A stretch of DNA of 64,000 nt from an uncultured Mycoplasmatota bacterium (GCA_947165285.1 CAMUZS010000003.1:87598-151597), one strand, 5' to 3'; positions 38,074-60,475 are shown, counted from the stretch's first letter. Numbers and translations are program-made. The notes: a model not told the origin generated them from the letters alone.

Positions 38074-39166
38074 CGTTAATTTCCTCATTCAAATCGCTTA
38101 ATCTTACCATATAATAATATAAACTATCATTATGTACTATATAAAACACACATTTTTCATGTTCTTCGATTAAATAATAGTTTATTACTTCTTTAATATT
38201 ATCTCTAACATCAACTAATTCTTGAAATTCAACTACTTTAATAAGTTTATAATCATCAAAATTAATTAATGTACATACATTAACGATTATTCTGTCATAA
38301 CACTTTAATATTTTATTAACATGTTTATCAAAATTATTATCTTTTAATTTTAATAGTTTATATAATCTTCTTACTTTTTTTAAATATCTAACTAAATAAA
38401 TAAGAATTAATAATAAGATTATTATACTAATAATTAAGAATAATACATCTTTTATTACATATTTAGTATTAGTAACTATTTTATTCTCATTTTCTAATTT
38501 TTCATCATTTAAATTTATATTTATTTCTTGTTGAGACAAAGGTATTTTTAATGTAGTCTTACTAGTATTAAATAATTTATAACTATTATCTTCTTTATTT
38601 TTTTCTTCAACTTGTAAGTATACTTCTAAATAACTTGTTGTACTAACAGCATAACTTGTTCTAAACGAATTTACTAAATTGTTATATTCATCATAATCTA
38701 TTTCAATATTTTCATTAATTATAATTCCTTTGTCATTATTTATTTCTTTAATAGTATCTTCTTTTAAAACATATTGTTTTTCAAAAAAGACATTTGAATT
38801 ATTTTGACTAGCTATAACTAGGTTACCAATTATATTGTATTTAACATCTAAATAACTTTCTTTATCAACATTAAATTTATATGTAAAATCAACATTAACT
38901 TTATTAATTAAACTAGCCACATAAGCCATATTTTTTCCTAAAAAAGGCGTATCATAAAAATCATTTTCTTTTAAAAATATTTTATAATCAATACTACCTG
39001 TTTCTTTATAATTAACTATACTATCTTCAGAAAAAGAAAAAGCTTTATTAAATGCCAAAAGTAAAAAAATAATAAGAAGTATTAATATTAGGGTACTGCA
39101 AAAAAAACGCAAGTAAAAACGTCTTCTTACTCTAATATCTAAATACTTCTTATTAATTACTCCCAT
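38060..39166 (-). CDS. two-TM membrane protein of the DUF5305-like type found beside SipW genes
   Basis: N-terminal TM, ~200-aa extracytoplasmic region, second TM (VLFLIISIIILLLILIYLV), ~110-aa cytoplasmic tail. The family assignment comes from recalled gene context only. Confidence 0.55.
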   Translation of the reverse strand: MGVINKKYLDIRVRRRFYLRFFCSTLILILLIIFLLLAFNKAFSFSEDSIVNYKETGSIDYKIFLKENDFYDTPFLGKNMAYVASLINKVNVDFTYKFNVDKESYLDVKYNIIGNLVIASQNNSNVFFEKQYVLKEDTIKEINNDKGIIINENIEIDYDEYNNLVNSFRTSYAVSTTSYLEVYLQVEEKNKEDNSYKLFNTSKTTLKIPLSQQEININLNDEKLENENKIVTNTKYVIKDVLFLIISIIILLLILIYLVRYLKKVRRLYKLLKLKDNNFDKHVNKILKCYDRIIVNVCTLINFDDYKLIKVVEFQELVDVRDNIKEVINYYLIEEHEKCVFYIVHNDSLYYYMVRLSDLNEEINDEKK

Positions 39167-39171
39167 TTTTA

Positions 39172-40296
39172 TCAACTCTCTTTATTAAGCCAAACTGTTG
39201 GATAACCAATAAATGGAACTTTTGTATCTACTTTTCCTATAATGGCTTCTTCTTCAGTTAAGAAATCATCTATTTTATTATTAGAATCCCCTTTTGTATA
39301 ATACATATTTTTTCCATCTAATTTTACTTTTTTATATATTCTATGCACAACAACAACGTCATTGTGTTTGAAGGCAATAATATCCCCTTCTTCTAGTTTT
39401 TCTTTAGGAACCTTTTGATCAACAATTACAACATCGCCAATATGTATTTTAGGTTCCATACTACCACTGGCAATAGCAACAGCATAAAATCTAAAATAAC
39501 CACTATAAAAATATATCATAACGCATATTACCGCTATTGGTAATATGATACCTTTAAATTTCCTTTTGTGATAATTACTATCAAAAATTTTATCTTTTCT
39601 GTAATCAAGGAATTTTAATATTCTAAATGAGAATACTACAGGTACTACTAAATATATTATAGATATAACATATTCACTAGGATTTGGTAAAATTGGTATT
39701 ATATATGGATATAAAGTAAAAACTAAATCAAATATTATTACAGGTTTATATCCTAGTTTTCTTGTAATATATGAGTAACATATATTTCTTGAAATAACAG
39801 GTAGCAAGGTAAGTGCCACATATCTTAATACGTCATATGCAGAAGTAAAATTAGTTGGAATAGTATTATATGTTAAATCCATCAAAATTAAAGTTATAAC
39901 CACAATAACTGTACAAATTTTACTTCCTTCAGCTTTACAAAGCATATTATATCTAAATATTTCTCTTAATATACAATAAAATATAACTGGAATAATAAAT
40001 TTCTTTAATCCATCAATGGTTAAATAGTTTTGTGTTCTTGCAAGTCCAACAGCCAATCCTAGCAAATAATATAATATAAAATATAAGACTACATAGAATA
40101 ATATTTCAAATAATATATCTTTCAAGTATCTGTTATTATCTTTTTCAATCACAAAGAACTTGTGAAATATTATTAATAATAATCCTAAAAATAAATCAAT
40201 TTTAAATTTTGAGAAAAAACCAGTAAAAGTATTAATTAAAAGTATTATTATTATAATTGCTATAAAGAATAATAATCTTTTATAACCCTTTTTCAT
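39172..40296 (-). CDS. sipW: SipW-type (ER/archaeal-type, S26B) signal peptidase I fused to a ~260-aa N-terminal polytopic membrane domain
   Basis: C-terminal ASGSMEPKIHIGDVVIV...GDIIAF...VVVHRIYKK...YYTKGDSNNKIDD gives the Ser/His catalytic pattern of SipW/Sec11. About 7-8 predicted TM helices precede it. GGAGGA RBS. Confidence 0.85.
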   Translation of the reverse strand: MKKGYKRLLFFIAIIIIILLINTFTGFFSKFKIDLFLGLLLIIFHKFFVIEKDNNRYLKDILFEILFYVVLYFILYYLLGLAVGLARTQNYLTIDGLKKFIIPVIFYCILREIFRYNMLCKAEGSKICTVIVVITLILMDLTYNTIPTNFTSAYDVLRYVALTLLPVISRNICYSYITRKLGYKPVIIFDLVFTLYPYIIPILPNPSEYVISIIYLVVPVVFSFRILKFLDYRKDKIFDSNYHKRKFKGIILPIAVICVMIYFYSGYFRFYAVAIASGSMEPKIHIGDVVIVDQKVPKEKLEEGDIIAFKHNDVVVVHRIYKKVKLDGKNMYYTKGDSNNKIDDFLTEEEAIIGKVDTKVPFIGYPTVWLNKES

Positions 40297-40345
40297 TTTT
40301 TTCCTCCATCTTCATCTACTAACTAATTAGTATTAATAGATAACA

Positions 40346-40987
40346 TTAGTCTACTGAATCATATGTTAAAACAATACTTGGTAATGTAACATCAAAGTCA
40401 CCATCTGCTTGTCCACTACCATCAGCATAAGTTATAGTTACAATAACTTGTTCAGCAGCATCGGTTGCTAAAGAATGACTAGTTAAACTTGCTACAGATG
40501 TAGTTGTAGCTGATTCACTTCCTACTTTAGCACTTAGTGTAATTCCAGTACATGCAGTATCAACTAAAGCTTGAGTAGTTCCAGTTTTAGCTGTACAAGT
40601 TTTTGATCCTTGGAATACAATACTATTTAAATATGCAACATATTTTCCTGCATTATATGCATAAAATGTATATGTAGCTGATTGTCCTGGTTCAGTAAAT
40701 GTTGCTTTTAAATTAGATACTGTTGGATCCGATGTATTATCAATTGTTGCGGCAGTAGCTGTAAACCCATCTACATTTTTATTTAATGTTGGTGTAATAT
40801 TATCTGTTTCAACTGCAGATGAACTAGATGAAAAATCAACATTAAATGATGATGCATCTGGCTTAACCTCAGCTGATGAAGAAATTGTTAATGTGTTTGA
40901 AAATGCAGCGTAACCAAGTGATACTCCTACAATTCCTAGCAATAATGCGGCAATTGCTAATGCCTTATAACCTTTATTATAATTCAT
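40346..40987 (-). CDS. secreted TasA/BsaA-like candidate fibre subunit (213 aa, Ala/Ser/Thr-rich)
   Basis: Signal anchor ALAIAALLLGIVGVSLGYAAFSNTLTISSSAEVKP. First gene of the operon, with a strong AAGGAGGAG RBS and codon use visibly less AT-rich than its neighbours. Confidence 0.7.
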   Translation of the reverse strand: MNYNKGYKALAIAALLLGIVGVSLGYAAFSNTLTISSSAEVKPDASSFNVDFSSSSSAVETDNITPTLNKNVDGFTATAATIDNTSDPTVSNLKATFTEPGQSATYTFYAYNAGKYVAYLNSIVFQGSKTCTAKTGTTQALVDTACTGITLSAKVGSESATTTSVASLTSHSLATDAAEQVIVTITYADGSGQADGDFDVTLPSIVLTYDSVD

Positions 40988-41351
40988 AAAAAACTCCTCC
41001 TTCTTAATAATTACAAATTATAAATTTTTATACCATAGAACATACTTGAAACACTAGTCTGTTACTATAACTTTAGTATATCACAGATTAATATTTATAC
41101 AATCAAAAAGTAAATAAATAATTGTAAAAAAATGTAAATTATACATCTATTTTACATTTTATAGTAGCATCTTAATAAAATCATCAGATAATTTCTTATC
41201 TAACTTATCTATTAACAACCGATTAATTTCATACAATTCCTCGACAATACTTCTAACAATTACGCAATTACTTTTCCCTTCATTGTTACAAATGTAAAAT
41301 TCATTAAATTTCATAAATATCACATCATTTTTATACTATAAATAGTCATAA

Positions 41352-42197
41352 CTAAAATTTATTTAATCTTAATGCATTTTTTGGACATTCATTAATACAT
41401 TTAGCACATAAAATACATTCTGTTCCATTTTTTCTTTTTCTTGAATCATCTAACATATCAACATTCATAGGACAATTTCTAATACATTTTTTACAATTAA
41501 TACATTTTAAGTGATCACATCTTACTCTTATATAAGAAAAATAACTCATAGGTTTTAAAAATACAGTTATAGGACATATATACTTACAAAATGCTCTATT
41601 ATCCTTAAATATAAATGCAAGTAATATTCCTAGTGCATAATAGAATAAATTACCTATTATAAATGAATAAAACATTATTGTTTCAAGATTACCTACCTTA
41701 AAAATAAATAATGCACCTACAAAAGTTAGTGAAAATAAAAATACAATATATTTAATCCAGCCAATTTTCTTTCTTTCACCTTTAGGAACTTTATATGGTA
41801 ATAAATCAAGTATCATACCAGTCCAACAAGCATAACCACACCAACCTCTTCCAAAAATTAAAGGTCCTACAATTTTAGCTACAAAATAATGAATTGTTGC
41901 TGCTTCAAAAACTCCTAAAAATAAATAATACCAAAAACCCTCTAACTGCATATTTTCTCTACATATTATACCTAAAAAAACAAGCATATATAATCCAACA
42001 CCAATTTGAACAAAATTTCTAGCATATTTTAATTTATGTTTCATCATTAATATACCTAAAGAAACACAAGTTCCAATGTATGTAAAATTTAGCAAATAAA
42101 ATAATTTAGAAGTAGATATAAATAAACTAATAGCAACTATTTCAAATATACACCATATTATAATAGAAATTCTATTTTCTTTAATAAGCTTCTTCAT
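41352..42197 (-). CDS. polytopic membrane 4Fe-4S ferredoxin-type protein (NapH/MauN-like)
   Basis: Multiple TMs; CGYACW; two ferredoxin motifs, CINCKKCIRNCP and CILCAKCINECP. Confidence 0.75.
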   Translation of the reverse strand: MKKLIKENRISIIIWCIFEIVAISLFISTSKLFYLLNFTYIGTCVSLGILMMKHKLKYARNFVQIGVGLYMLVFLGIICRENMQLEGFWYYLFLGVFEAATIHYFVAKIVGPLIFGRGWCGYACWTGMILDLLPYKVPKGERKKIGWIKYIVFLFSLTFVGALFIFKVGNLETIMFYSFIIGNLFYYALGILLAFIFKDNRAFCKYICPITVFLKPMSYFSYIRVRCDHLKCINCKKCIRNCPMNVDMLDDSRKRKNGTECILCAKCINECPKNALRLNKF

Positions 42198-42211
42198 AAG
42201 TACTACCTTCT

Positions 42212-42472
42212 TTATTTTATTATATGAGCAGTAATAATAGAGTAATTATAAGAATTTATAGTTATTATTATACTATCTATTTCACAATAATAATTCTTTC
42301 CTTTTTTGTATACCAAAGATTTATTATTTATTATTTTTTCCTTTAAATAATTTACTACATCATTACTAATATTTAAATTTTTTTTAATTCTATCTTCACC
42401 AAGTTTAGTAGTATGAATTTTATTAATATTAGATATTAAAACATTTTTAAAATCTAATAATTTATTATCCAT
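42212..42472 (-). CDS. DUF3781-like small protein
   Basis: HTTKLGEDRIKKNL...KKGKNYYC pattern. Confidence 0.55.
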   Translation of the reverse strand: MDNKLLDFKNVLISNINKIHTTKLGEDRIKKNLNISNDVVNYLKEKIINNKSLVYKKGKNYYCEIDSIIITINSYNYSIITAHIIK

Positions 42473-42567
42473 AAAATCACTTCACTTCTACTTGATTATA
42501 TCATAATAAGTAGGTTTTTCCCTACTTATCTATATTTTTATAAAAAAATAATGTTAAGTTATTAACA

Positions 42568-42897
42568 TTATTTCTTTTCATATATAGTATCTCTTCCTAG
42601 AGAATCCTTAACATTTAATTTGTTACCTTCAATACTAAAAGTTGTTTCAAATGGAGCTGTACTTCCTGTATATAAAATTGATATTTTATCACCATTTATT
42701 TCATAAGTACAATTCATTAATGTACCAGCAGCATCATAACTACAAGTCTTATCTTCATTAAATGTATATACATATGAACCTTGAGCCCACTTTCCAATTA
42801 TAGGATCTTTTTTAGCTTCCTTTTTATCATTTCCACATCCAAATAATGTTACACATAACATTACCACAATAAAACTTACTAATATATTTTTTTTCAT
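42568..42897 (-). CDS. small lipoprotein (lipocalin-like, DUF5640-type)
   Basis: Lipobox TLFGC; GKWA...YTFNEDKTC...YEINGDKISI. Confidence 0.6.
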   Translation of the reverse strand: MKKNILVSFIVVMLCVTLFGCGNDKKEAKKDPIIGKWAQGSYVYTFNEDKTCSYDAAGTLMNCTYEINGDKISILYTGSTAPFETTFSIEGNKLNVKDSLGRDTIYEKK

Positions 42898-42902
42898 ATA
42901 AT

Positions 42903-44717
42903 TTATTCTCCTATTCTTTTCATATTATATTTTTTTGATAATACTAAACCAAATATACTTAAAACAAACAATACTACAAAAAACATTATTTTATCACTTG
43001 TTTTTGGATTAACAATATTATCATTTTCCTCTGCTTCTTCTACATCATCATTTATTTCTTTTGCATCTTTTTCATAAAAAGTATATGTTAATTCTATATC
43101 ATCATATAATTTATCATCATTAATACTTATACTCCATACACCTTTTTCAAAATTTTCATTTGCTTTCATATTAGTTGGTAGAATAATATCTGATAATTTA
43201 GTACCAGCATATACATTAGATACTATATCATCACTAGATCCATTATCCCATGTACCATTTTTTATTTTAAAAGTTACTTTTATATTACTTTTAATCTCTA
43301 CATAATTTGCTTCATTATCATCATAATAGAATAAATAATTATCATATCCAGAAACATTAACTTTTTTTATTTCTAAATCATTTCCATCTGAATTTAAAAA
43401 TTTCAAATTATTTAAATTTTCACAATTACTGCAACCATCAAAAGCAGGAGTGCCTTTTGCAATTAAATGACTATTTTTAAAATCTAAAATATTACCTCTA
43501 ATAGCATAAGTATTATTACCATCTACTAATACTTCAGATTTTTCTATTTTAGTAAATGTTCCATATATTGAACTCCTTGTTGTATTTAAATTAGAATTAA
43601 CAATATTTGTATTATTTAACATTATGTTACTAATCTTATCAAGATTAATATTTGAGTTTAAAACATCATACATATTAAATGCAACTGTTCCGTTACTTAA
43701 ATTAATAGTACTATCACTTAATAATTTAATACTTGTTGTATTATAAGAATTAGTATCTACAGTTGATTTATTTATTCTATTTATAAATAAATTATCCATA
43801 TTAGCTATCTTAATTTGAGAATTATCAATTTCACATTCTGTATTTATAGAACCTTCAATTGACGCATTTTTAACGTCTATTTCACTATCTTTTATTTTAA
43901 AAGTTTCAGTTCTTATTAACATATTATTACTACTACTTGTTGATTTAATCTCAGAATTTTCTATAACTAAATTACTATTTAAATATTGAAAACCACTACC
44001 ATAATTTACTTTAGAATCCTTAATAGTTAAATTCGCACTAGATGCTATTGTATTATTAATATTTAAATTAGAATTAGAAATTATAAGAGGTCCACCTATA
44101 TTTAAATTAGGTAAATTTAAAGTACTGTTTTCTATTTTATTATCTGCTGTTGAAACATTAAAAGATATACCTGTACCACTTAATGTAGAATTATTTACAT
44201 TAAACGACTTAAAACCTAAACCTCCAAAACTTACAAACGATACATCAGAATTATTAAACACAACACCAGAATTACTAGATGATGTTAATGAAAATTTAGA
44301 ATTATTAACAGTTAAATTATTAATATAATTAATATAAGGAACAAAAATATCACTACAATTATTAATAGTTAAATTACCAGTACCATTACCATTTGTATTA
44401 TTAATAACTATCTTATGATCTGATTCTATAGTTACATTCTTAGAAAAGTTAAGAGTAGAAAATGTAATATCTGTTTTTGTCCTTATTGTTATATCTCTAT
44501 TAACAAATACAACAGCAAAATTTTCACCATCTATAGCATTTAACGTTAAAACATCATTTTCAAAAGTATAACGATCTGATAAAGCTGGATCATGCATAGG
44601 TTGAACAGTACCATCTTCATTTATTCCCATTTGAATAGTTCCTGCAGCTTTAACATTAACTGAAAAAGTTACTGCAAACAAAAAAGTTATAATAAATAAT
44701 AGTTTTTTAAAATTCAT
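42903..44717 (-). CDS. Asn-rich beta-helix-like surface protein with C-terminal sorting-signal-like anchor (NPKTS + TM + basic tail)
   Basis: Sec signal MNFKKLLFIITFLFAVTFSVNVKA. Degenerate N-x-S/T-rich ~20-aa repeats. C-terminus NPKTSDKIMFFVVLFVLSIFGLVLSKKYNMKRIGE. Confidence 0.7.
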   Translation of the reverse strand: MNFKKLLFIITFLFAVTFSVNVKAAGTIQMGINEDGTVQPMHDPALSDRYTFENDVLTLNAIDGENFAVVFVNRDITIRTKTDITFSTLNFSKNVTIESDHKIVINNTNGNGTGNLTINNCSDIFVPYINYINNLTVNNSKFSLTSSSNSGVVFNNSDVSFVSFGGLGFKSFNVNNSTLSGTGISFNVSTADNKIENSTLNLPNLNIGGPLIISNSNLNINNTIASSANLTIKDSKVNYGSGFQYLNSNLVIENSEIKSTSSSNNMLIRTETFKIKDSEIDVKNASIEGSINTECEIDNSQIKIANMDNLFINRINKSTVDTNSYNTTSIKLLSDSTINLSNGTVAFNMYDVLNSNINLDKISNIMLNNTNIVNSNLNTTRSSIYGTFTKIEKSEVLVDGNNTYAIRGNILDFKNSHLIAKGTPAFDGCSNCENLNNLKFLNSDGNDLEIKKVNVSGYDNYLFYYDDNEANYVEIKSNIKVTFKIKNGTWDNGSSDDIVSNVYAGTKLSDIILPTNMKANENFEKGVWSISINDDKLYDDIELTYTFYEKDAKEINDDVEEAEENDNIVNPKTSDKIMFFVVLFVLSIFGLVLSKKYNMKRIGE

Positions 44718-44812
44718 ATTTCCCACATCCTATTATTATTATAACAGTGCTTTACATTCAAATATACTTTTTTTGACATGATATACACTTTAATTTACAA
44801 ATTATTTACTAA

Positions 44813-45295
44813 TTAAATATCCATAAAAGAACTAATATGTGCAGTAGAATAATTAGTATTACATAAAATATCATTTAATACATCAACAGTATCATCTATC
44901 ATAATTATATTTTCATCCATTACTTCTGGATGTTTATTTCTAATTTCAATTATCTTATTAACTTTTTCACTATCATTTTTTACACAATAAACATTATCTT
45001 TTAAGATATTATAATACTTGTTAACAAATTCCTTTTTATATTCTATTTCAATATCAGCATTAACACGAGTTAATACATAAATATTATTAATATTTCTTTC
45101 TTTTATAAAATTTTGTAGTCTTTTACTAACTCTATCTTGAATATAAACATTTTCTTCATTTTTTAAACAAATGTCCCATTCTTCATCAGTTAAAAAATGA
45201 TTTCTTTGACCAAATTCCATTGTGGCTAAAACACCATCAACATCAAATACTAAAATACTATTAATATCATTTAATAATTCTTTAATTTTACTCAT
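44813..45295 (-). CDS. HAD-superfamily phosphatase/nucleotidase-like protein
   Basis: Motif I VFDVDGVLA; late IMIDD motif; 160 aa. Lies 3 nt downstream of lepB. Confidence 0.6.
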   Translation of the reverse strand: MSKIKELLNDINSILVFDVDGVLATMEFGQRNHFLTDEEWDICLKNEENVYIQDRVSKRLQNFIKERNINNIYVLTRVNADIEIEYKKEFVNKYYNILKDNVYCVKNDSEKVNKIIEIRNKHPEVMDENIIMIDDTVDVLNDILCNTNYSTAHISSFMDI

Positions 45296-45298
45296 ATA

Positions 45299-45781
45299 TT
45301 AAAACTTCTTAAAATGATTAAATGGGAAAATTATTAAATCAGTAGTTCCTAGTATTTGATCTTTCTTAACAGGTCCAAATGACCTACTATCAAATGAATT
45401 ATTTCTGTTATCACCAATAACAAAATATTCATCATCACCTAAAATATATTCTTTAAAATCAGGAGTTTTTCCATTAGCATGAGAATCATCAACTTCTTCA
45501 TTATTAACATAAATAATTCCACTAACACATTTTATTTTTTCACCAGGCATTGCAAATAATCTTTTGATTAATTTGTTACTTCCCTTTTGAATAACAACAA
45601 TCTCACCTTTTTTTAAATTATTCTTAGCAAATTTCTTTAGTATCATAACATCTCCACTAAATAATGTTTTTTCCATTGAAGGACCATCTACAGTTACCGG
45701 AGTTATAATAAAACTTCTAATTAATACAACAACTAATATAATAACAATATAAGGAATAATTTCCTTAATAATTTTTTTCAT
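45299..45781 (-). CDS. lepB: signal peptidase I (bacterial LepB/SipS type, S26A)
   Basis: VDGPSMEKTL (Ser), IKRLFAMPGE (Lys), GDNRNNSFDSRSFGPV. Confidence 0.93.
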   Translation of the reverse strand: MKKIIKEIIPYIVIILVVVLIRSFIITPVTVDGPSMEKTLFSGDVMILKKFAKNNLKKGEIVVIQKGSNKLIKRLFAMPGEKIKCVSGIIYVNNEEVDDSHANGKTPDFKEYILGDDEYFVIGDNRNNSFDSRSFGPVKKDQILGTTDLIIFPFNHFKKF

Positions 45782-45878: not shown

Positions 45879-46670
45879 ATGAAAAAACTAAGTAAAGTAT
45901 TATTAGCTATTATTGTTACAGTATTTTTATTTACTGGATGCTCTTTAAGAGAAAATATTGAAATGAATATTTCAGCTGACAAAAATATTTCAATGAGTAT
46001 TGTTATGGCAATGGATGAAGATATGATTGATTCTATGTTAACTGCAGATGGAACATTAACAAAAGATAAAATCACAGATGAAAAAAGATGGGAGTATATA
46101 GATAAATCAGTAGATAAAATGGATGATTCATACAAAAAAGAAAAATATAATCAAGATGGTTACAAGGGATATAAATATACTATTGAACTAGGAACACTTG
46201 ATGATATTAGTACAACATCAAGTGATAAAAGAGTTGATTTATCTGAAGCTTTTGAAGGAAAATTCAAAGGAAATAATTTATTCATTAAAGAAGATAATAC
46301 ATATATTTCAAATATGAAATATACTGTTGAAGGAGATAATGATTACTCTCAATATGAATCAATGGGAGCAATGTTTGATTTAAATTTTGTGATTAATATA
46401 CCAAACCAAGCTAAAGATTATAATGCAGATAAACTTGAAAATGAAGGTACAAGACTTACATGGAGTTTAATGAAATCAGCTGATATAGAATTTAAATTTG
46501 ATTTAGATTCTAAAGCAAATAATAATGATACAAAAGAAGCTAATAAAGAAAATGATTCAAAAAATAATAATACTATAATTATTATCGGTGCAGTTATTGG
46601 TGGTATTTTATTAATAGCAATTATAGTATTAATAATAGTTTTATCAAAGAAAAACAAAAATAATAATTAA
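45879..46670 (+). CDS. lipoprotein with C-terminal TM anchor (LppM/DUF3153-like); paralog of 20055-20858
   Basis: Lipobox LFTGC. Shares N-terminal and ...FVINIPNQA / FIVNLPNKA motifs with the paralog. One of only three plus-strand genes called in the window. Confidence 0.75.
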   Translation: MKKLSKVLLAIIVTVFLFTGCSLRENIEMNISADKNISMSIVMAMDEDMIDSMLTADGTLTKDKITDEKRWEYIDKSVDKMDDSYKKEKYNQDGYKGYKYTIELGTLDDISTTSSDKRVDLSEAFEGKFKGNNLFIKEDNTYISNMKYTVEGDNDYSQYESMGAMFDLNFVINIPNQAKDYNADKLENEGTRLTWSLMKSADIEFKFDLDSKANNNDTKEANKENDSKNNNTIIIIGAVIGGILLIAIIVLIIVLSKKNKNNN

Positions 46671-47227: not shown

Positions 47228-48238
47228 CTATTTAGTTTTAAAACCATAATGTTCTCTTACTTTATTTTCTATTTCTTTAAATACATCAGGATTATCTTTT
47301 AAATATTCTTTAACATTTTCTCTACCTTGACCTATCTTTTCTCCATTATAGGCATACCATGCACCAGATTTTTCTAAAATGTTTATTTCAGATGCAATAT
47401 CAATTATTTCACCAGTATGAGATACTCCTTCACCATACATAATATCAACTACAGCACTTTTAAATGGAGGAGCTACCTTATTTTTTACTACTTTAATATT
47501 AGTTTTATTACCTATTATTTTATCTCCTTGTTTAATAGCTTCACCACGTCTAATATCAAGTCTTATTGAAGAATAAAACTTTAATGCTCTTCCACCAGGT
47601 GTTGTTTCAGGATTACCAAACAAAACTCCAACTTTTTCTCTTAATTGGTTAATAAAAATAGCTGTTGTTTTAGTTTTATTAATTGTTCCTGATAATTTTC
47701 TTAATGCTTGAGACATTAATCTTGCTTGAAGTCCTACATGAGAATCACCCATCTCACCTTCAATTTCTGCTTGAGGAACTAATGCTGCTACTGAATCTAT
47801 TACTACAATATTAACAGCTTCAGATCTAACTAAAGCTTCACATATTTCTAAAGCTTGTTCACCAGTATCAGGTTGTGATAATAATAATTCATTAATATCA
47901 ACACCCAAATTTTTTGCATAAACTGGATCAAGAGCATGTTCTGCATCAATAAAAGCTGCTCTTCCACCACTTTTTTGCACTTCTGCAATTGCAGTCAAAG
48001 CAAAAGTTGTTTTACCACTTGATTCTGGTCCATATATTTCAATAATTCTTCCCTTTGGATATCCCCCAACTCCTAAAGCAATATCAAGTGCCATAGAACC
48101 GCTAGATGTTGTTTCAACATTAATATGTTCTTGACTACCCAACTTCATAATAGCACCCTTACCAAATTGCTTTTCTATATCAGCCATTACTTGTTCTAAT
48201 GCTTTATTTTTATCCTTTACATCACTTGAAACCTTCAT
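47228..48238 (-). CDS. recA: recombinase RecA
   Basis: Walker [22 protein letters not shown]2 loop region; 336 aa. Confidence 0.98.
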
Positions 48239-48270
48239 ATTTACCTCCCAGATTTTTCGTATAAATTTAT

Positions 48271-48298
48271 TTTATAATAAAATTCTTTTCTTTGTCAA
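48271..48298 (-). promoter_or_regulatory. putative sigma-A promoter of recA (TTGACA-16-TATAAA)
   Basis: Read on the minus strand between the peptide ORF stop and the recA RBS. No Cheo/LexA box (CGAAC-N4-GTTCG) is visible. Confidence 0.45.
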
Positions 48299-48312
48299 TG
48301 TATTTAAATATA

Positions 48313-48429
48313 TTATATTATTTTAGCAACAAAAAATTTCATTTTAATTCTAATATAATTAAAAAATTCATTTAATCTTTGTGCAAAATAAGATCCACCT
48401 TTAATATTAATTAATTCATATTTTTGCAT
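48313..48429 (-). CDS. unannotated 38-aa peptide with double-glycine leader (bacteriocin- or pheromone-like)
   Basis: AAAGGAG RBS 7 nt before the ATG. Sequence MQKYELINIKGG|SYFAQRLNEFFNYIRIKMKFFVAKII. Below the ORF-track length cutoff. Confidence 0.5.
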   Translation of the reverse strand: MQKYELINIKGGSYFAQRLNEFFNYIRIKMKFFVAKII

Positions 48430-48460
48430 AAAAATACTCCTTTCTATTATTAGTCCCTCT

Positions 48461-48488
48461 ACTATATATATAATCTACTTTTTATCAA
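48461..48488 (-). promoter_or_regulatory. putative promoter of the peptide ORF (TTGATA-16-TATAGT)
   Basis: Read on the minus strand, downstream of the operon terminator. Confidence 0.35.
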
Positions 48489-48500
48489 TTTCCTTTTTTT

Positions 48501-48530
48501 AAAATAAAAAAAGTATCATATTTTGATACT
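48501..48530 (-). terminator. Rho-independent terminator of the pilin-like operon
   Basis: agtatca/tgatact hairpin (48512-48530) right after the stop; TTTTTTATTTT on the minus strand. Confidence 0.7.
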
Positions 48531-49586
48531 TTATTCATCTTTTACAATTCCAAACCATTTAGTTGGTTTCTTTTCAATACCACCAGGAACCATTTTATCA
48601 AATCCCATTTTATATAATAATCTATTAATAGGTTCATTTTTTTCTGCTTTATCATCCAAATAAGGTAAATTATCAAATGTCTTACAACGAGATTCATATT
48701 CAAATTCTTGAACATCTTTTTCATTTAACATACTCTTATTTAAAACAATTTGATAACTCTTCATTTTTTCCAAAATCATTCTATCTAGTCTAATCATTTT
48801 ATTTAATTTAATAGTGGTAGGTTCAATAATATGAAGAACTTCATTCATAGTAGTTATTTTATCAGATTCATTAATATCTACTAAAATTATTTCATAATCA
48901 CTATTTGGATTTTTAGTAATAGATTCAAGTTCTGCTGAAGAAACACTTCTTAAATCACCATCATTAAAAAACATAAAATCATTTTTATCAACTTCAACAG
49001 CTAATACTTTATATTCTTTTTCTAAAGCTTTTTTCATCATATAAGTAAGAGTTGTAGCACCAGCTCCTGATGTCAAATCCTTAATAGCAATAACTCTAGT
49101 TCCCATAAACATTTTATTAACAGAATCATTAATAAAATTAGAATTAACTTGTCCTGGATCTAAATTAATATTAGATTTTTTATCAGTTCCAGAAGAAGAT
49201 CCTAAAATATGATATTGAGCAACATCTTTATAACTATTTGGATTATTTATTAAATATGCAATAGCATCAATATTTCTAGTAAAATTATATATTCCCATAG
49301 AAATTAACTCAGATATATAAGATGGAGAATTAACTTCTTCACTATCATCAAGTAACAATATTACCTTAGTCATATCAAGACCAAAAGATAACTTTTGAAT
49401 ATTAGCAATATTTTTATAATCAACAATTGCAGTAATATCTAAAATCATTTTATTAAAGAAGAAATTTTGAAAATTATTAACAATATCTTCAACTTCAAAT
49501 TCTCCTTGTACATTTTTAATAATATCTATTTTTAAATTAGATAACATTTGACTATACTTATTTGCAATAATTACATTCATTTTCAA
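48531..49586 (-). CDS. TadZ/CpaE-like protein: receiver-like N-domain + MinD/ParA-fold domain with degenerate Walker A
   Basis: RVIAIKDLTSGAGATTLTYMMKKALEKEYKVLAVEVD aligns with the MinD/ParA ..KGGxGK[ST]T.. block, but both lysines are replaced. YEIILVDINESD is Walker-B-like. AAGGAGGA RBS. Confidence 0.6.
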   Translation of the reverse strand: MKMNVIIANKYSQMLSNLKIDIIKNVQGEFEVEDIVNNFQNFFFNKMILDITAIVDYKNIANIQKLSFGLDMTKVILLLDDSEEVNSPSYISELISMGIYNFTRNIDAIAYLINNPNSYKDVAQYHILGSSSGTDKKSNINLDPGQVNSNFINDSVNKMFMGTRVIAIKDLTSGAGATTLTYMMKKALEKEYKVLAVEVDKNDFMFFNDGDLRSVSSAELESITKNPNSDYEIILVDINESDKITTMNEVLHIIEPTTIKLNKMIRLDRMILEKMKSYQIVLNKSMLNEKDVQEFEYESRCKTFDNLPYLDDKAEKNEPINRLLYKMGFDKMVPGGIEKKPTKWFGIVKDE

Positions 49587-49594
49587 TTTCCTCC

Positions 49595-50107
49595 TTAACC
49601 TATACCATTTAAATATGTATCATCATATGTTGCATCTATTTCACTAGTTTGTCCTTCAACATTAAATACACCAATTCTACCTAAAACAGGTAAATCAAAT
49701 CTAAAGAATAAATTTATTTTATAATAAGCTCTAGATTTAAAATAACTATGATAATTTCCAAATTTAGTAAAACAATAATAATATTCATTATTATTATTTC
49801 CATCAATAACCTCTATTTGAGGATGATCAACATCTAAACTTTTAACACCATAAGTGTGAATAGCGTTTGTACTAGTAACTAAAGCACACTTACCAGTAGT
49901 TTTATAACCAGATTGATTTAAATAATTATTAATTAATGCAATACCATTTTCAGTCATTCCTTGACTTTTTTCAATAATTCCTAAAACTTCATTTTTTATT
50001 CTAAAAGATTTTGAGTAATTAATAGTAAGGGCAATATAAGCTGCAAAAATCAAGGTAAATATTAATACTAATTGAAATACCCATGTTCCACCAATTGTCT
50101 GTCTCAT
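49595..50107 (-). CDS. TadE/minor-pseudopilin-like protein (170 aa)
   Basis: MRQTIG|GTWVFQLVLIFTLIFAAYIALTI. Paralog of the 152-aa ORF (INxSKSFRIKNE, GYKTTGKC, AYYKINLFFRFDLP). GGGAGG RBS. Confidence 0.55.
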   Translation of the reverse strand: MRQTIGGTWVFQLVLIFTLIFAAYIALTINYSKSFRIKNEVLGIIEKSQGMTENGIALINNYLNQSGYKTTGKCALVTSTNAIHTYGVKSLDVDHPQIEVIDGNNNNEYYYCFTKFGNYHSYFKSRAYYKINLFFRFDLPVLGRIGVFNVEGQTSEIDATYDDTYLNGIG

Positions 50108-50120
50108 ATTTACCTCCCTA

Positions 50121-50579
50121 CTACTCCATTAATTTAGGATAATACAACTTTTTAGTTGATCCCTTAATAGAAAATGTAAACATATTTCTTACAATAGGTA
50201 AATCTATAGAAAAGAATACCTTAATTTGATAGTATGCACTATCAGGAAATTGTTCCTTAGTATTATTACTAGTTTCATACTTTACATACATTTCCTTAGC
50301 ACAAAATAAACCACGATTTCCTTGAGTAATCATAGCTTTTCCATCTTCTTTACTATCACAATTACCATAAGTTCTATATCCTATATGATCCATATATTCT
50401 TTAATTTGTTCTACAGCTTCACCATTTAAACCATTATTTTTTTGAATTATATTAATAATTTCATTCTTAACTTTATAAGCTTTATTCATATTTATAGAAA
50501 GGCATAAGTATCCTGTAAAAAGTACTACAAAGGTAACTACAATTCCAGTTAAAAAGTAAGAACCTATCGCTTCTCTCAC
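50121..50579 (-). CDS. TadE/minor-pseudopilin-like protein (152 aa)
   Basis: (GTG start) MREAIG|SYFLTGIVVTFVVLFTGYLCLSI; INMNKAYKVKNE, GYRTYGNC, AYYQIKVFFSIDLP. Confidence 0.55.
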   Translation of the reverse strand: MREAIGSYFLTGIVVTFVVLFTGYLCLSINMNKAYKVKNEIINIIQKNNGLNGEAVEQIKEYMDHIGYRTYGNCDSKEDGKAMITQGNRGLFCAKEMYVKYETSNNTKEQFPDSAYYQIKVFFSIDLPIVRNMFTFSIKGSTKKLYYPKLME

Positions 50580-50585
50580 TACCTA

Positions 50586-50849
50586 TCATCCTTTCCAAGG
50601 GCAATAAAATTCATGATCATCATCTTTTAAGTGACATTTTACTTTTTCAATATTTTTCATATCATCACATTTATTTGTACCAGAACCCTCACCACATGGA
50701 TTTTCACATATTGCCTTACTACAATTACTATTTGCTTTAAAATTATTGTCTAGTGATGGCCAAATAGTATAATAGAAAAAAGCCACAAGAAGAGCAACTG
50801 CTATTACAACAATTATTGTAAGATTAAGTTCTCCTGTAGCTTCTTTCAT
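50586..50849 (-). CDS. small Cys-rich pilin-like protein (87 aa)
   Basis: MKEATG|ELNLTIIVVIAVALLVAFFYY; six Cys; NSNCSKAICENPC motif. Confidence 0.6.
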   Translation of the reverse strand: MKEATGELNLTIIVVIAVALLVAFFYYTIWPSLDNNFKANSNCSKAICENPCGEGSGTNKCDDMKNIEKVKCHLKDDDHEFYCPWKG

Positions 50850-50885
50850 ATTTCATTACCTCACTATTTTATTCTTTTTTATAAA

Positions 50886-51182
50886 TTATTTAGATGGAGT
50901 AGTTGTTCCACCAGTATTTCCACCTGTTGTTCCACCTGTTGTATCCGTTTTAGCTTTATTTGGACAAACAACTTCCTTAGTTTCTCCTTTATCATCAATA
51001 TAAGTACAACTACATGTATCAGCATCACAACCAGATGGACAAATAGCGTTTGCACAATTAGTATTTCTTTCTATACTACTCTTAATTCCTGGCCATACAA
51101 ATGCATAAAAGAATGCTGCCACGGCTGCAATTGCTACAACTGTAACAACTGTCATATTTAATTCTCCTGTTGCCTCTTTCAT
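50886..51182 (-). CDS. small Cys-rich pilin-like protein (98 aa) with Thr/Gly-rich tail
   Basis: MKEATG|ELNMTVVTVVAIAAVAAFFYA; six Cys; NTNCANAICPSGC; tail TDTTGGTTGGNTGGTTTPSK. GAGAGGAG RBS. Confidence 0.6.
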   Translation of the reverse strand: MKEATGELNMTVVTVVAIAAVAAFFYAFVWPGIKSSIERNTNCANAICPSGCDADTCSCTYIDDKGETKEVVCPNKAKTDTTGGTTGGNTGGTTTPSK

Positions 51183-51215
51183 ATATATAATCTCCTCTCT
51201 CTCTACTATATATAA

Positions 51216-51244
51216 TTATAATGTATATTTTTCTAAATATCAAT
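51216..51244 (-). promoter_or_regulatory. consensus-like sigma-A promoter of the pilin-like operon (TTGATA-17-TATAAT)
   Basis: On the minus strand, -35 at 51244-51239 and -10 at 51221-51216, about 34 nt upstream of the first ATG. Confidence 0.6.
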
Positions 51245-51339
51245 ACATTAATTTACACTTTACACCTTAAAAATTAAATAAATTATTGTTATAGTTGTCA
51301 TATATACTTTCTTTTCATTTTTAAATAAAAATTATAATA

Positions 51340-51366
51340 ATAAAAAAATCAAGTAAAACTTGATTA
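51340..51366 (-). terminator. Rho-independent terminator of the 232-aa membrane protein gene
   Basis: atcaagt/acttgat hairpin overlapping the stop codon; TTTTTTT on the minus strand. Confidence 0.65.
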
Positions 51367-52062
51367 TTTAAATACTGCATTATTATAGACTCGTTTCATA
51401 ACTTCATCTGGATAAAACTTATCAAAAAATGATCCAAGTGGTGAAAAAGGGTGCCATCCTAATTGTCTAAACCAATATCTTATTGCTGCTCCAAATGATA
51501 CAAATAAATCAAACATAATAAATACTAATAATACTCTATATAATAAAATTCCTAAATTATATGGTATTTTCTCAATTAATTTTGATAAAAAAGGATAAAC
51601 AATATAAACTAGTAACAGTGCAAGTAATCCCCAAACTAACATATAAGGGACTGTTGTTCTACCATGAATATTTAGAAATTTATCTGAATAATTCCATGAA
51701 ACTGCTCCAGTAAATCTTTCTTGTAAAAAACTAGCAATATATTCAAATGCTCCCCCTATTAAACCACCATATAAGAAGTTTTCATACCATCTTTTTTCTT
51801 TTCTAAGTAAAAAGTAAGCCATTAATACTGCACCAAATCCATAAACTGGAGATAATTCACCATAAATAAGTCCTCTTCTTGTAACCCACACAATTGGTTG
51901 ATTATTAATATATTGAAATCCAATTGTTAATAACTCTTCAAAAATACAACCAAATACACAACCTATAACAAATATAAAAAATAATTTTTCTTTACACAAA
52001 CCCTTAGCAAATACACGTTTATCAGCTTGAAAATAATTAATTAATTTCTTCATTTTCATCAC
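51364..52062 (-). CDS. polytopic membrane protein (DUF1113 / putative type-IV ABC-transporter CmpB-like family)
   Basis: About 6 TMs; FGCIFEELL, GGAFEYIASFLQERF and SWNYSD motifs typical of that family as recalled. Confidence 0.55.
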   Translation of the reverse strand: MMKMKKLINYFQADKRVFAKGLCKEKLFFIFVIGCVFGCIFEELLTIGFQYINNQPIVWVTRRGLIYGELSPVYGFGAVLMAYFLLRKEKRWYENFLYGGLIGGAFEYIASFLQERFTGAVSWNYSDKFLNIHGRTTVPYMLVWGLLALLLVYIVYPFLSKLIEKIPYNLGILLYRVLLVFIMFDLFVSFGAAIRYWFRQLGWHPFSPLGSFFDKFYPDEVMKRVYNNAVFK

Positions 52063-52116: not shown

Positions 52117-52653
52117 TTACTTAGCACTTTTAGTTGTTGTAGTCTTTTTAGTTGCAGTAGTAGTCTTTTTAGTTGCAGTAGTTGTTTTTTTAGCAGTAGT
52201 TGTTGCTTTTTTAGTTGTAGTTTTCTTTTCTTCTTTTACTTCTTCTTTTTCAACAACTTTTTCTTCAGCTTTAACAGCAGCTTTTTTAACTACTTTTCCA
52301 TCATTTGCATCTTTTGCAATTTTTACAATTGATTTAAATGCTTTACTATCATTTACAGCAAGTTCAGCAAGCATTTTTCTATTAATTTCTACTCCAGCTT
52401 TAGTTAAACCTGAAATAAATTTAGAATAAGAAATATCATTTTCTCTACACGCAGCATTAATTCTTGTAATCCATAATTTTCTAAAGTTTCTTTTATTAGC
52501 TCTTCTATCTCTAAATGCATAATTTCCACTGTGGAAAACTTGTTCTTGAGCTGTTTTATATAATCTATGTTTAGAACCAAAGTATCCTTTTGCTTGTTTT
52601 AATACTTTTCTTCTTCTTGTTTTAGATACGCTTCCGCCTTTAACTCTTGTCAT
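52117..52653 (-). CDS. rplT: 50S ribosomal protein L20 with ~60-aa Lys/Thr/Ala-rich C-terminal extension
   Basis: [35 protein letters not shown]... L20 core (~118 aa), then ...[31 protein letters not shown]. Confidence 0.95.
52141..52215. repeat. 21-nt tandem repeat inside the rplT 3' extension
   Basis: agtctttttagttgcagtagt occurs at 52141-52161 and identically at 52162-52182, followed by diverged units (7-aa period TTATKKT). Confidence 0.85.
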
Positions 52654-57501: not shown

Positions 57502-57530
57502 AAAAATCACATAAAAAGTGATTTTTTATT
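57498..57530. terminator. bidirectional terminator between convergent genes
   Basis: aaatcac/gtgattt hairpin (57504-57524), flanked by an A-run and a T-run. Confidence 0.65.
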
Positions 57531-57786
57531 TTGTTTCAATTATTAACTTAATTGCAGTTTTTTGTTCATCATTTATTAATACATCGTTAAATGCAGGAAT
57601 TACACATAAATTATATCCCGATGGAGATAAAAATCCTCTTGCTATAGCTATTGCTTTAATACTTTGATTTAAAGCACCTGCTCCAATGGCTTGAAGTTCA
57701 ACACTTTGATTTTCCCTAAAGATATTTGCAATTGCTCCAGCAACTTTACTAGGATTAGATTTCGATGATACTTTAAGTATTTCCAT
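57526..57786 (-). CDS. spoVS: stage V sporulation protein S
   Basis: MEILKVSSKSNPSKVAGAIANIFRENQSVELQAIGAGALNQSIKAIAIARGF... follows B. subtilis SpoVS nearly position by position. AAGGAGGA RBS before ATG 57786; 86 aa. Confidence 0.95.
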   Translation of the reverse strand: MEILKVSSKSNPSKVAGAIANIFRENQSVELQAIGAGALNQSIKAIAIARGFLSPSGYNLCVIPAFNDVLINDEQKTAIKLIIETK

Positions 57787-57829
57787 GATTTCCTCCTTTA
57801 TAGAATATATGAATAAAAAAAAGAAAGTA

Positions 57830-58690
57830 TTACTTTCTTTCCCATCTAGCAAAATTACCACAAGGTAAAATAATATTACTATTACTTTGTTTTATTCCAA
57901 GTTCATCACTAAATATTTTACCACCTAAATCAGAAACTAAAACTATATTTAAAATATTTTCTAAAACAGTTTTAGAAAGTCCAGTAGTATATGAATTAAT
58001 TAAAAACAATAATGAATCATCTGATAGTAATTCCTTACACAAAGATACCAATTCAAATAAGTCTTTTTCAATATTCCATACTTCTCCAGATGATCCTCTT
58101 CCAAATGAAGGTGGATCCATTATAATAATGTCATATTTATTACCACGTCTAATTTCTCTTTTTACAAATTTTAAAACATCATCTACTAAAAATCTTATTG
58201 GTTTATCCTCTAGATTTGATGATTTAACATTTTCTTTTGCCCAATCAATCATTCCACGAGATGAATCAACATGAACAACCGATGCTCCTGCAGATAGTGC
58301 TGCAATACTAGCCGCTCCAGTATAAGCAAACAAATTTAATACTTTAATATCTTTTCTATTAGATTCTCTTATAATTTTATCTATATAATTCCAATTATAT
58401 GCTTGTTCTGGAAATAAACCAGTATGTTTAAAATTCATTAATTTTAAATTAAAAGTATAATCTCTATAATTTATTTGCCAACTACTAGGAATACTTTTTA
58501 TTATTTTCCAAGATCCTCCACCAGAACTACTACGACTATATTTAGCATCAGCTAATGAATTACTTAAATCATCTTGCCATATTATTTCAGGATCAGGTCT
58601 TAATAAATAATACTTACCCCACTTTTCAAGTTTTTCCCCATTACTCATTCCTATTATTTCATAATCTTTAAAATCATTAACTATTTGCAT
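57830..58690 (-). CDS. class I SAM-dependent methyltransferase (RlmI/RlmK-like rRNA methyltransferase type)
   Basis: VLNLFAYTGAASIAA (SAM motif I) and IIMDPPSFGRG. Start set at ATG 58690 (AGGTG RBS). Confidence 0.75.
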   Translation of the reverse strand: MQIVNDFKDYEIIGMSNGEKLEKWGKYYLLRPDPEIIWQDDLSNSLADAKYSRSSSGGGSWKIIKSIPSSWQINYRDYTFNLKLMNFKHTGLFPEQAYNWNYIDKIIRESNRKDIKVLNLFAYTGAASIAALSAGASVVHVDSSRGMIDWAKENVKSSNLEDKPIRFLVDDVLKFVKREIRRGNKYDIIIMDPPSFGRGSSGEVWNIEKDLFELVSLCKELLSDDSLLFLINSYTTGLSKTVLENILNIVLVSDLGGKIFSDELGIKQSNSNIILPCGNFARWERK

Positions 58691-59857: not shown

Positions 59858-60475
59858 CTAATCATGTGATTTAATTACATATACTATAAAACCAACACCT
59901 ACGATAGCTACTAAAACAACTAATATAATAACTACATTATTAGACACTTTTGGTTCTTCCATATGATCAAAAACATCATATTTTTCATTTGAATTATACA
60001 TTTCAATAACTTGATCAATTATTTTCTTTCCTAAGTCTTCACTAAAACCAGAGTATGCTTTATTACCTACAACAATAAAAGGTACTCCATCACTTTTTTC
60101 TCCTAAAGTTGAAGCAACTTTACTCATTAATCTGTTATTACTTGTATTATTCCATACTTCATAAGAAACTATATTATAATACTTTCCATATTCTTTTGCA
60201 TTTTGTGCAAAATATACAATAGCATCTAGACAATGTGGACAAGTTGATCCTCTAAATATATAAACATTAATCTTTTTATCATCTTCTTTATAATCTGATA
60301 AATCTGCTGCTTTTAATTTAGATACGTCTTCTTCATATCCACCTAGCGCTCCAAATACCTTAATTTCATCCTCTACTGCTTGTTTTAATGTTTCTTTTGC
60401 CTCAGCATTTACTAATAAATTAAAAGAAAAAATACTTACTAATAATACAAATAAAATTTTAAATATCTTGTTCAT
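59858..60475 (-). CDS. secreted, C-terminally anchored thioredoxin-fold thiol-disulfide oxidoreductase (DsbA/BdbD-like, CPHC)
   Basis: Signal peptide, FRGSTCPHCLDAIVYF active-site motif, C-terminal TM VVIILVVLVAIVGVGFIVYVI. Confidence 0.75.
   Translation of the reverse strand: MNKIFKILFVLLVSIFSFNLLVNAEAKETLKQAVEDEIKVFGALGGYEEDVSKLKAADLSDYKEDDKKINVYIFRGSTCPHCLDAIVYFAQNAKEYGKYYNIVSYEVWNNTSNNRLMSKVASTLGEKSDGVPFIVVGNKAYSGFSEDLGKKIIDQVIEMYNSNEKYDVFDHMEEPKVSNNVVIILVVLVAIVGVGFIVYVIKSHD

Follow-up and report, generated by a model that had tools for sequence, protein, structure and literature searches.

The 64,000-nucleotide stretch of DNA analysed here (the window), from an uncultured Mycoplasmatota bacterium (GCA_947165285.1, CAMUZS010000003.1:87598-151597), contains a block of five genes on its minus strand, which encodes four small proteins with similar N-terminal leaders and a larger protein with a MinD/ParA-type domain. 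The first two genes, pil1 (open reading frame (ORF) 50886-51182) and pil2 (50586-50849), encode proteins of 98 and 87 residues. They are followed by E1 (50121-50579), which starts with GTG and encodes 152 residues, and E2 (49595-50107), which encodes 170 residues. The last, TadZ-like or ParA-like, gene occupies the ORF 48531-49586, of which 48531-49580 is likely to be coding. Because the sequence AAGGAGG is located 9 nt 5' of the ATG at 49580, and all homologs of the last protein begin with MNVI (MNVII in the window protein), this ATG is most likely the start of the gene, giving a product of 349 rather than 351 residues. Names ending in "-like" are given here on the grounds of architecture and synteny alone.

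The genes of the block are separated by gaps of 6-36 nt, and a GGAG-type ribosome-binding site can be read before every start. The sigma-70-type promoter TTGATA-17-TATAAT (51243->51215, minus strand) matches in 11 of 12 positions, is the top promoter match within 48200-51450, and is located about 30 nt 5' of pil1. An earlier interpretation of the window, made by a model from the DNA alone and called here the sequence-only reading, had listed five genes preceded by ribosome-binding sites, one promoter, and one terminator. The genes and the promoter were recovered, the terminator in part: RNAfold predicts an AT-rich hairpin followed by a U-run (48497-48541, with a 9-bp core at 48510-48532, minus strand; -13.7 kcal/mol), and a GC-dependent terminator scan of the operon region called none. 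The hairpin overlaps the stop codon of the last gene and is a probable weak intrinsic terminator. The ratios of nonsynonymous to synonymous substitutions (dN/dS) are 0.13-0.53 across all five genes (0.13-0.53 for pil1 and 0.21-0.43 for pil2), which indicates that all of them are under purifying selection. Searches of the five window proteins against Pfam and NCBIfam gave nothing above the cut-offs; four have no family match, and the last protein has weak sub-threshold matches to CbiA, AAA_31, and BcsQ.

Each of the four small window proteins begins with a leader of the form M(K/R)xx(T/I)G (MKEATG in pil1 and pil2, MREAIG in E1, and MRQTIG in E2), followed by approximately 20 hydrophobic residues. 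The six-residue leader and the hydrophobic helix are conserved over about 300 distinct homologs. Among the distinct proteins from about 80 related loci, Gly6 is present in 73/75 pil1, 67/70 pil2, 78/79 E1, and 56/76 E2 sequences. This conservation indicates that the shared leader ending in glycine, which the sequence-only reading had described in the window, is real and far beyond chance. The residue that follows Gly6, and would be in position +1 after cleavage, is a glutamate in 74/75 pil1 and 68/70 pil2 proteins. The first 10 mature residues of E1 and E2 contain no conserved acidic residue.

The proteins pil1 and pil2 are paralogs (hhalign E 5e-37) with cysteine-rich heads, and four cysteine positions are conserved family-wide. 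The N-terminal 26 residues of pil1 are nearly unchanged in 75 distinct homologs, and the remainder of the protein is variable. The helix ELNMTV(V/I)TVVAIAAVAAFFY is nearly frozen while the ParA-like proteins of the same loci fall to 50% identity; the hyperconserved pilin helix MKEATGELNMTVVTVVAIAA could mark the whole clade. The heads of pil1 differ between loci in their length and number of cysteines (4 or 6), and the window protein has a six-cysteine head with a Thr/Gly-rich tail. The window pil2 also has a six-cysteine head and ends with CPWKG; in its family, four cysteine columns are 99-100% conserved and 68/69 members have the KG end. Thr/Gly/Ser-rich tails are present in 10/79 pil1 proteins, including that of the window. 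Some loci contain an extra pil1-like copy (L048, ~7736-8631; L065, 8216-8740), showing that the gene is sometimes duplicated again.

E1 is composed of the leader, a transmembrane helix, and an extracellular domain that ends with YYxIxxFFxxDLP. E1 and E2 are also paralogs (hhalign E 2e-52). Both paralogous pairs proposed in the sequence-only reading, and the six cysteines in each of the two smallest proteins, are confirmed. The E1/E2 and pil1/pil2 pairs share only their N-terminal 24 residues (hhalign probability 68-89%). The AlphaFold (AF2) model of E2, with a predicted local distance difference test score (pLDDT) of 86.6 and a predicted template modelling score of 0.77, contains helix 3-47, helix 53-65, and five β-strands. 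The order of the predicted secondary-structure elements, a 45-residue N-terminal helix and a β-sheet, fits the layout of pilins. A profile search of 1.84 billion representatives found E2 homologs in 1,321 representative clusters, where a word-indexed search had given 66 homologs; the top 150 of the 1,321 matches all belong to the same family and provide no bridge to TadE. Long members of the E family carry C-terminal Listeria-Bacteroides surface repeats (Flg_new) or an M15 peptidase; therefore, the C-terminal part is extracellular and modular.

The AlphaFold model of the last protein, of moderate quality (pLDDT 66), begins with a receiver-like βα-repeat domain (residues 1-122), which a disordered linker joins to a C-terminal domain; Foldseek matched the latter to MinD, BcsQ, HypB, FleN, FlhG, and ParA (E 1e-4 to 1e-5, template modelling score 0.3-0.5). 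The deviant Walker A motif of MinD/ParA proteins, xKGGxGK(S/T) with both lysines, is found neither in the window protein nor in any family member. The P-loop of the window protein is TSGAGATT, as the sequence-only reading had noted, and that of the family reads (H/G/N)AG(A/S)T(T/S), so that both lysines are lost in every member. The loss is not peculiar to this family: a P-loop can be recognised in two of four CpaE/TadZ-position proteins from annotated Tad loci, and in neither does it contain the P-loop lysine (Sinorhizobium, KGGTGSST; Novosphingobium, SGGCGATS). The 5,235 homologs of the last protein are all unnamed and originate from "Bacilli" or "Firmicutes bacterium" metagenome-assembled genomes (MAGs), and a tblastn search of PLSDB plasmids gave no match. 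TadZ is a protein of the FleN subfamily that has an atypical Walker A motif and acts as a recruiting hub (PMC6668835). It is plausible that the last protein works like TadZ. The resemblance lies in fold class and architecture and not in sequence profiles, and the protein is at most a candidate member of the TadZ family.

The last protein is encoded in at least 577 stretches of species-representative genomes, nearly all of which are MAGs of uncultured gut "Bacilli"/"Tenericutes", including Ca. Coprovivens, Ventrenecus, and Caccenecus. The order pil1-pil2-E1-E2-ParA is intact in all 80 loci with enough sequence, and in every locus pil1 is the first and the ParA-like gene the last gene of the block. 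At 57-77% identity of the last protein, the block directly follows a machinery set, which encodes, in order, a large protein, a DUF5411 protein, one or two CpaB/RcpC-like proteins, an ATPase of the T2SSE family, and proteins of about 300 and 262 residues. Genes of a type IV secretion system (T4SS) may follow downstream. Both flanks can be read in 45 species-representative loci, and in 31 of these the ATPase set is located directly upstream of the block. Both the ATPase set and the T4SS are present in 20/45 loci, only the ATPase set in 11/45, only the T4SS in 10/45, and neither, as in the window, in 4/45. These counts are approximate, as the ATPase set of a few loci is displaced by an insertion and lies at the margin of the region covered. 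The homologs are thus placed not among spore-coat or phage genes, a context that the sequence-only reading had named as speaking against a pilin module, but mostly after the CpaB-like genes, the gene of a CpaF/VirB11-type ATPase, and those of the two membrane proteins.

The ATPase has a T2SSE domain, and PGAP and JGI give relatives the name CpaF. The CpaB-like proteins match Pfam RcpC in 9/9 cases (best 4.6e-7) and TIGR03177 (4.6e-6), below the curated cut-offs, and hhalign relates them to canonical CpaB/SAF proteins with a probability of 89% (E 2e-6). The 300- and 262-residue proteins are putative platform proteins, named so by position only. The DUF5411 proteins (L010, 3065-3745; L013, 7654-8388) begin with MKESYWG-YWLI, a leader of the type found in the block proteins, and may represent a further pilin-like component.

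The window contains the block without its machinery. A Pfam search of all ORFs of at least 100 residues in the 64 kb detected no T2SSE ATPase, T2SSF platform protein, secretin, or A24 prepilin peptidase, in agreement with the sequence-only reading. The same reading had considered that the pilins might be an accessory set served by machinery encoded elsewhere, and a relative supports this. In the MAG SIG198, the homolog P0028 (81% identical) belongs to an orphan block flanked by glycosyltransferase genes and priA. The CpaF-family protein P0208, which occurs in the same JGI sample, is encoded in a separate chromosomal locus of this MAG with the gene order ftsA, ftsZ, T4SS_pilin-like, 240-residue protein, 1439-residue protein, DUF5411, two CpaB-like, ATPase, 300-residue protein, and 262-residue protein. 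No pilin block, VirB4, or coupling protein is encoded near P0208. For at least one relative, SIG198, the orphan arrangement therefore reflects a split system. A Com-type pilin with an N_methyl motif is present in the SIG198-type genome, which implies that a prepilin peptidase is also encoded there.

Some observations in the SIG198-type genome concern the pilin heads and tails. A glycosyltransferase/GtrA cluster (L007, 1-8351) is located directly upstream of the orphan block on the same strand. Given this cluster and the Thr/Gly/Ser-rich tails, glycosylation of pilin tails is conceivable. A gene for a PedC-like/thioredoxin protein (L007, 12587-13024) is positioned 1.5 kb from the same block. 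The window contains the CPHC oxidoreductase-like ORF that the sequence-only reading had pointed out (59858-60475), which encodes a thioredoxin-like protein of 205 residues with no Pfam match at 1e-4, and is about 8.7 kb from the block. Either of these proteins could be an oxidoreductase for the cysteine-rich pilin heads.

We interpret the operon as one half of a strongly divergent Tad-like (type IV filament) system, namely the half that supplies the filament subunits and the positioning protein and is separated from the motor genes. This interpretation, to which we assign a probability of roughly 0.6, supports the non-canonical pilin/Tad-like module proposed in the sequence-only reading. The Tad-like system is typical of uncultured, Mollicutes-related gut Bacilli and lies outside the canonical Tad families. 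Most likely, pil1 and pil2 are major-pilin-like, E1 and E2 are minor-pilin-like, and the last protein is a TadZ-like, catalytically degenerate protein with a MinD/FleN fold. By analogy with SIG198, the motor genes of the window genome are expected at another locus. The four small proteins would insert into the membrane by their N-terminal helices, and a peptidase whose gene is located elsewhere would cleave off the leader M(K/R)xx(T/I)G, or at least recognise it. The CpaF/VirB11-type ATPase, the two polytopic membrane proteins, and the CpaB-like proteins would extract the subunits into a filament, which E1 and E2 might prime or cap. The disulfide-stabilised variable heads of pil1 and pil2 would form the surface of the filament, and the ParA-like protein may recruit or position the machine, acting as a non-hydrolysing hub.

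The bacteria that carry the block are uncultured, have reduced genomes, and are abundant in the gut communities of animals and humans. Surface filaments probably influence their attachment, DNA exchange, or interaction with the host, and the system is invisible to standard annotation despite its many occurrences in species-representative genomes. It also provides a natural example of a Tad-like system divided over two loci.

Several results weigh against the assignment of the operon to a Tad-like system, among them the comparisons with the Flp, TadE, T2SSF, and TadZ families, all of which failed. Weak matches to Flp, TadE, and T2SSF were sought with Pfam in 145 family members, and the hhalign comparisons used canonical profiles built from four annotated Tad loci, among which CpaB was the only one to score. 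The Pfam models of Flp and TadE are matched by none of 92 members of the pilin and E families, only four of which show a faint match to archaeal Pilin_N. The pilins have no Pfam match to Flp and reach an hhalign probability of less than 1% against four Flp sequences. Among 56 E1/E2 members, none matches TadE (PF07811) at E <=0.1, and the hhalign probability of the E family against seven canonical TadE sequences is 2-3%. T2SSF was not matched by any of 40 members of the 300- and 262-residue proteins (Pfam), for which hhalign against canonical TadB/TadC gave a probability of <=2%; the positive control, canonical TadB against TadC, reached 97.7%. Unlike TadB and TadC, the 300- and 262-residue proteins exhibit no paralogy detectable with hhalign. 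The last-protein family shows no hhalign similarity to canonical TadZ/CpaE, no TadZ_N Pfam match was seen in the last protein, a sequence and profile search against PDB sequences gave nothing relevant, and the solved TadZ structure is absent from the top 50 Foldseek matches. Foldseek of the E2 model against the PDB identified no pilin or other significant neighbour, the best match being levivirus coat proteins (E 0.04). The pilin-like fold is thus suggested by the layout of the model and not by a structural relative. Additionally, pil1 and pil2 have their glutamate at +1, with none at the mature position +5. A regular-expression search for the A24 motif GxGD(V/I/A)K over all loci gave just two chance matches, in an ATPase tail, so that no ORF of a candidate peptidase was found in 97 loci, nor an A24 peptidase in the window. 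The motor locus of the genome from which the window comes was not observed, as a look-up of the identical ParA-like protein gave no record.

In an alternative explanation, the four small proteins are plain, uncleaved, signal-anchored surface or membrane proteins, with the ParA-like protein engaged in unrelated positioning and the resemblance to pilins superficial. In addition to the missing pilin-family matches by sequence or structure and the lack of a prepilin peptidase nearby, such an explanation can draw on the leader, which has no net positive charge and is followed by glutamate, and on the platform proteins, which are putative. It would leave unexplained why Gly6 is conserved in two unrelated protein families of one operon, and why the block is strictly syntenic with genes of a T2SSE-family ATPase and CpaB-like proteins. 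The frozen helix and varying head of pil1 form the pattern expected for packing in a filament core, and the model of E2 combines a long helix with a β-sheet. We therefore regard plain signal anchors as distinctly improbable.

The ATPase and the downstream genes of the relatives raise the question of whether the block belongs to a conjugative apparatus instead. VirB4 and other T4SS genes follow it in 30/45 loci, 10 of which have no ATPase set upstream. The downstream region encodes two VirB2-type T4SS_pilin proteins, a membrane protein of 700-950 residues, a TcpE/PrgI-like protein, VirB4, a cell-wall hydrolase, and a coupling protein, and in 46/67 loci a VirB2-type T4SS_pilin gene begins within about 2 kb after the ParA-like gene. 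These T4SS genes match families of Mycoplasma integrative and conjugative elements (ICEs): VirB4_plasma/Mbov_0397 (5.9e-106), Mbov_0396 (7e-9), and MMCAP2_0566 (3e-12) in NCBIfam. Two properties of the ATPase are further arguments against a Tad-like system. Its NCBIfam matches, all below the cut-offs, are of about equal strength for VirB11 (4.7e-33, the top match), TrbB (4.6e-29), and TadA (7.4e-29), and the annotated genes most similar to it (28-32% identity) belong to the CpaF/VirB11 family of Bacillus-group plasmids. These include a pLS20-type plasmid, in which the ATPase gene is part of a plain conjugation operon without the partner genes.

According to this alternative, the block is part of a Mycoplasma-ICE-type T4SS and forms a filament or membrane complex for mating-pair formation, DNA transfer, or DNA uptake, with the ATPase as its VirB11. 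The window copy would then work with a T4SS encoded elsewhere, or remain after the loss of the rest. Even the SIG198-type chromosomal machinery locus opens with a VirB2-type T4SS_pilin gene (L013, 2129-2491; PF18895, 27.1 bits, just above the cut-off), and a related plasmid cluster of Peribacillus ends in a VirB2 gene. However, neither VirB4 nor a coupling protein is encoded near the same SIG198-type locus, 15/45 loci have no T4SS within 7.5 kb, including some that consist of the machinery and the block alone, and no T4SS gene, VirB4 and coupling protein included, was found in the 64-kb window. CpaB-like and TadZ-like proteins are features of Tad systems and not of T4SSs, and a VirB8/NTF2-like fold for E2 was rejected, as Foldseek gave no such match. 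We consider a conjugative nature of the block rather unlikely; it bears on the function of the filament more than on its nature, and overlaps with the Tad-like interpretation.

Both interpretations could be joined in a speculative extension that we hold to be possible, although not probable. The block and the ATPase set would represent a branch of the type IV filament superfamily that has so far gone unrecognised, with disulfide-rich-head pilins that have glutamate at +1, platform-position proteins whose sequences are unrelated to T2SSF, and no dedicated A24 peptidase. Mycoplasma-ICE-type T4SSs in wall-bearing Mollicutes relatives would have taken up this branch as their pilus or mating module. 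If true, it would be a conjugation-linked pilus in monoderms that some lineages, including that of the window, retain as a split system on the chromosome. The connection of the homologs to Mycoplasma-ICE-type T4SSs is visible from the relatives and not from the window sequence alone.

The scarcity of the fully orphan arrangement, 4/45 loci, and the location of such blocks at different chromosomal sites in different species, as expected of mobile-DNA remnants, would agree with the window copy being what is left of an integrated conjugative element, no longer functional and in decay. The state of the genes argues otherwise: the window block has five intact ORFs, a strong promoter, and ribosome-binding sites, and three orphan species share 81-82% identity in the ParA-like protein. 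Between orphan copies, dN/dS is 0.18-0.53 at a synonymous divergence (dS) of ~0.55-1.5; therefore, the orphan copies are being kept up and are not decaying. Furthermore, SIG198 retains a motor locus elsewhere. A non-functional remnant is accordingly very improbable.

In comparison with known Tad systems, the full loci of the relatives match the gene order of monoderm Tad loci, as found in a Streptomyces plasmid and Clostridium sporogenes pRSJ11_1 (SAF/CpaB, CpaF, two platform genes, a small pilin, and two TadE), except that the ParA-like gene is last and not first. As in Tad, there is a MinD/ParA-class protein with a lysine-less P-loop and a short leader ending in glycine, and, as expected in monoderms, there is no secretin. 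The system differs from Tad in the absence of Flp, TadE, T2SSF, and TadZ profile matches, in having no TadV peptidase in the locus, and in being frequently fused to a T4SS. The pilins differ from Flp in their glutamate at +1, instead of the G|xxxxEY motif, and in their cysteine-rich globular heads. The system can also be split over two loci, which is called very rare for Tad (PMC6668835). Prepilin peptidases may be shared between systems or encoded apart, and loci of the MSH type have none (PMC6668835). The last protein resembles TadZ/CpaE, including the Eubacterium rectale TadZ structure cited in PMC6668835, in the combination of a receiver-like domain with a MinD/FleN-fold domain and an atypical Walker A motif. 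It differs from TadZ/CpaE in that the signature lysine is lost as well.

The Tad-like cluster of the order TANB77 (PMC11680825) is comparable in that it is divergent in sequence, belongs to a genome-reduced, uncultured gut Firmicute, and was mostly recognised by structure. It likewise consists of machinery genes followed by a series of sequence-orphan, single-transmembrane pilin-like proteins (PMC11680825). TANB77 differs in belonging to Clostridia, whereas the carriers of the block are Bacilli related to Mollicutes, and in having fused TadC/TadB, separate TadZ and CpaE, and seven pilin-like genes encoding 143-621 residues. Neither a T4SS association nor a split arrangement is reported for it (PMC11680825). 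A canonical tad operon with tadV, recognisable with hidden Markov models (HMMs), is present in the genome-reduced Erysipelotrichales isolate Bulleidia extructa (PMC12786226), in contrast to the family described here. A similar contrast exists within one genome: a second, canonical-looking Tad set (L094, 15618-17094) is located 5-7 kb from an orphan block; in this set, KGGVGKT is intact in the ParA, one N-terminus is TadE-like (MEKKGQALVEF), and CpaF is matched at +7.3 kb. We found no paper that describes the block.

As in Mycoplasma ICEs, genes of the Mbov_0396, Mbov_0397 VirB4, and MMCAP2_0566 families are present in many relatives, where they directly follow the block; the window has none of them. 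A 2025 review of T4SSs describes Mycoplasma ICEs with neither a CpaF/VirB11 ATPase nor a pilin-like block (PMC12857230). According to the same review, Gram-positive T4SSs have no VirB11 homologs, and a VirB4/coupling-protein pair that works with a type IV pilus is reported from a Gram-negative island only (PMC12857230). The frequent coupling of the block to a Mycoplasma-type conjugation apparatus therefore makes a connection of type IV filaments with DNA transfer in monoderms concretely testable. The closest cultured relative found is plasmid pA of Peribacillus sp. R9-11, with the order DUF5411-like (125 residues), CpaF/VirB11 ATPase (32% identity), 281-residue protein, 247-residue protein, 120-residue E-like protein, and VirB2-family protein. 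In a search of just 18 sequences, the family HMMs matched the 247-residue (3e-9), DUF5411-like (2e-7), and E-like (2e-5) proteins. These matches are weak, though specific. The similarity is very low, and neither a ParA-like gene nor MKEATG-type pilins were detected in the plasmid.

The Com pseudopilus (ComGC-ComGG) is alike in its similar-sized small pilins and in the encoding of major and minor pilins in one operon. It was rejected as an identity of the block, as the window has no N_methyl/G|FTLxE motif and no ComGA/ComGB context. Because the SIG198-type genome has its own N_methyl pilin, Com is a separate system.

The neighbours of the operon are housekeeping genes, those of CmpB, L20, and IF3 upstream, and RecA and L19 downstream; SSB, SufB, SpoVS, SpoIVA, RuvAB, TopA, and PolC are encoded further out in the window. 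A link of the block to the neighbouring recA was rejected, as the flanks differ in every orphan locus. The same applies to a role in sporulation: SpoIVA and SpoVS are encoded in the window, but there is no such association at other loci. Their genes (18498-19976 and 57526-57861, respectively) indicate that sporulation genes are retained in this AT-rich Bacilli lineage with an apparently small genome.

A minus-strand cluster at 35893-45781 contains two S26/S24 signal-peptidase-I-like genes (45299-45781 and 39172-40296), and encodes a 160-residue neighbour, a DUF5305 protein, a 731-residue surface protein with Listeria-Bacteroides repeats, a DUF5640 protein, and unknown proteins of 607 and 213 residues. 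It looks like a cluster of a dedicated signal peptidase and surface or fibre proteins. A role of this S26 signal-peptidase cluster (38-46 kb) was rejected, as it is not beside the block at other loci. The L20 protein (52117-52653, minus strand) has 178 residues, of which 3-109 form the Pfam domain, followed by a Lys/Thr/Ala-rich repeat tail. Two paralogous membrane or lipoprotein-like proteins with an LppM domain are encoded at 45879-46670 (plus strand) and 20055-20858 (minus strand), and one of them is the product of the sole plus-strand gene in the recA region.

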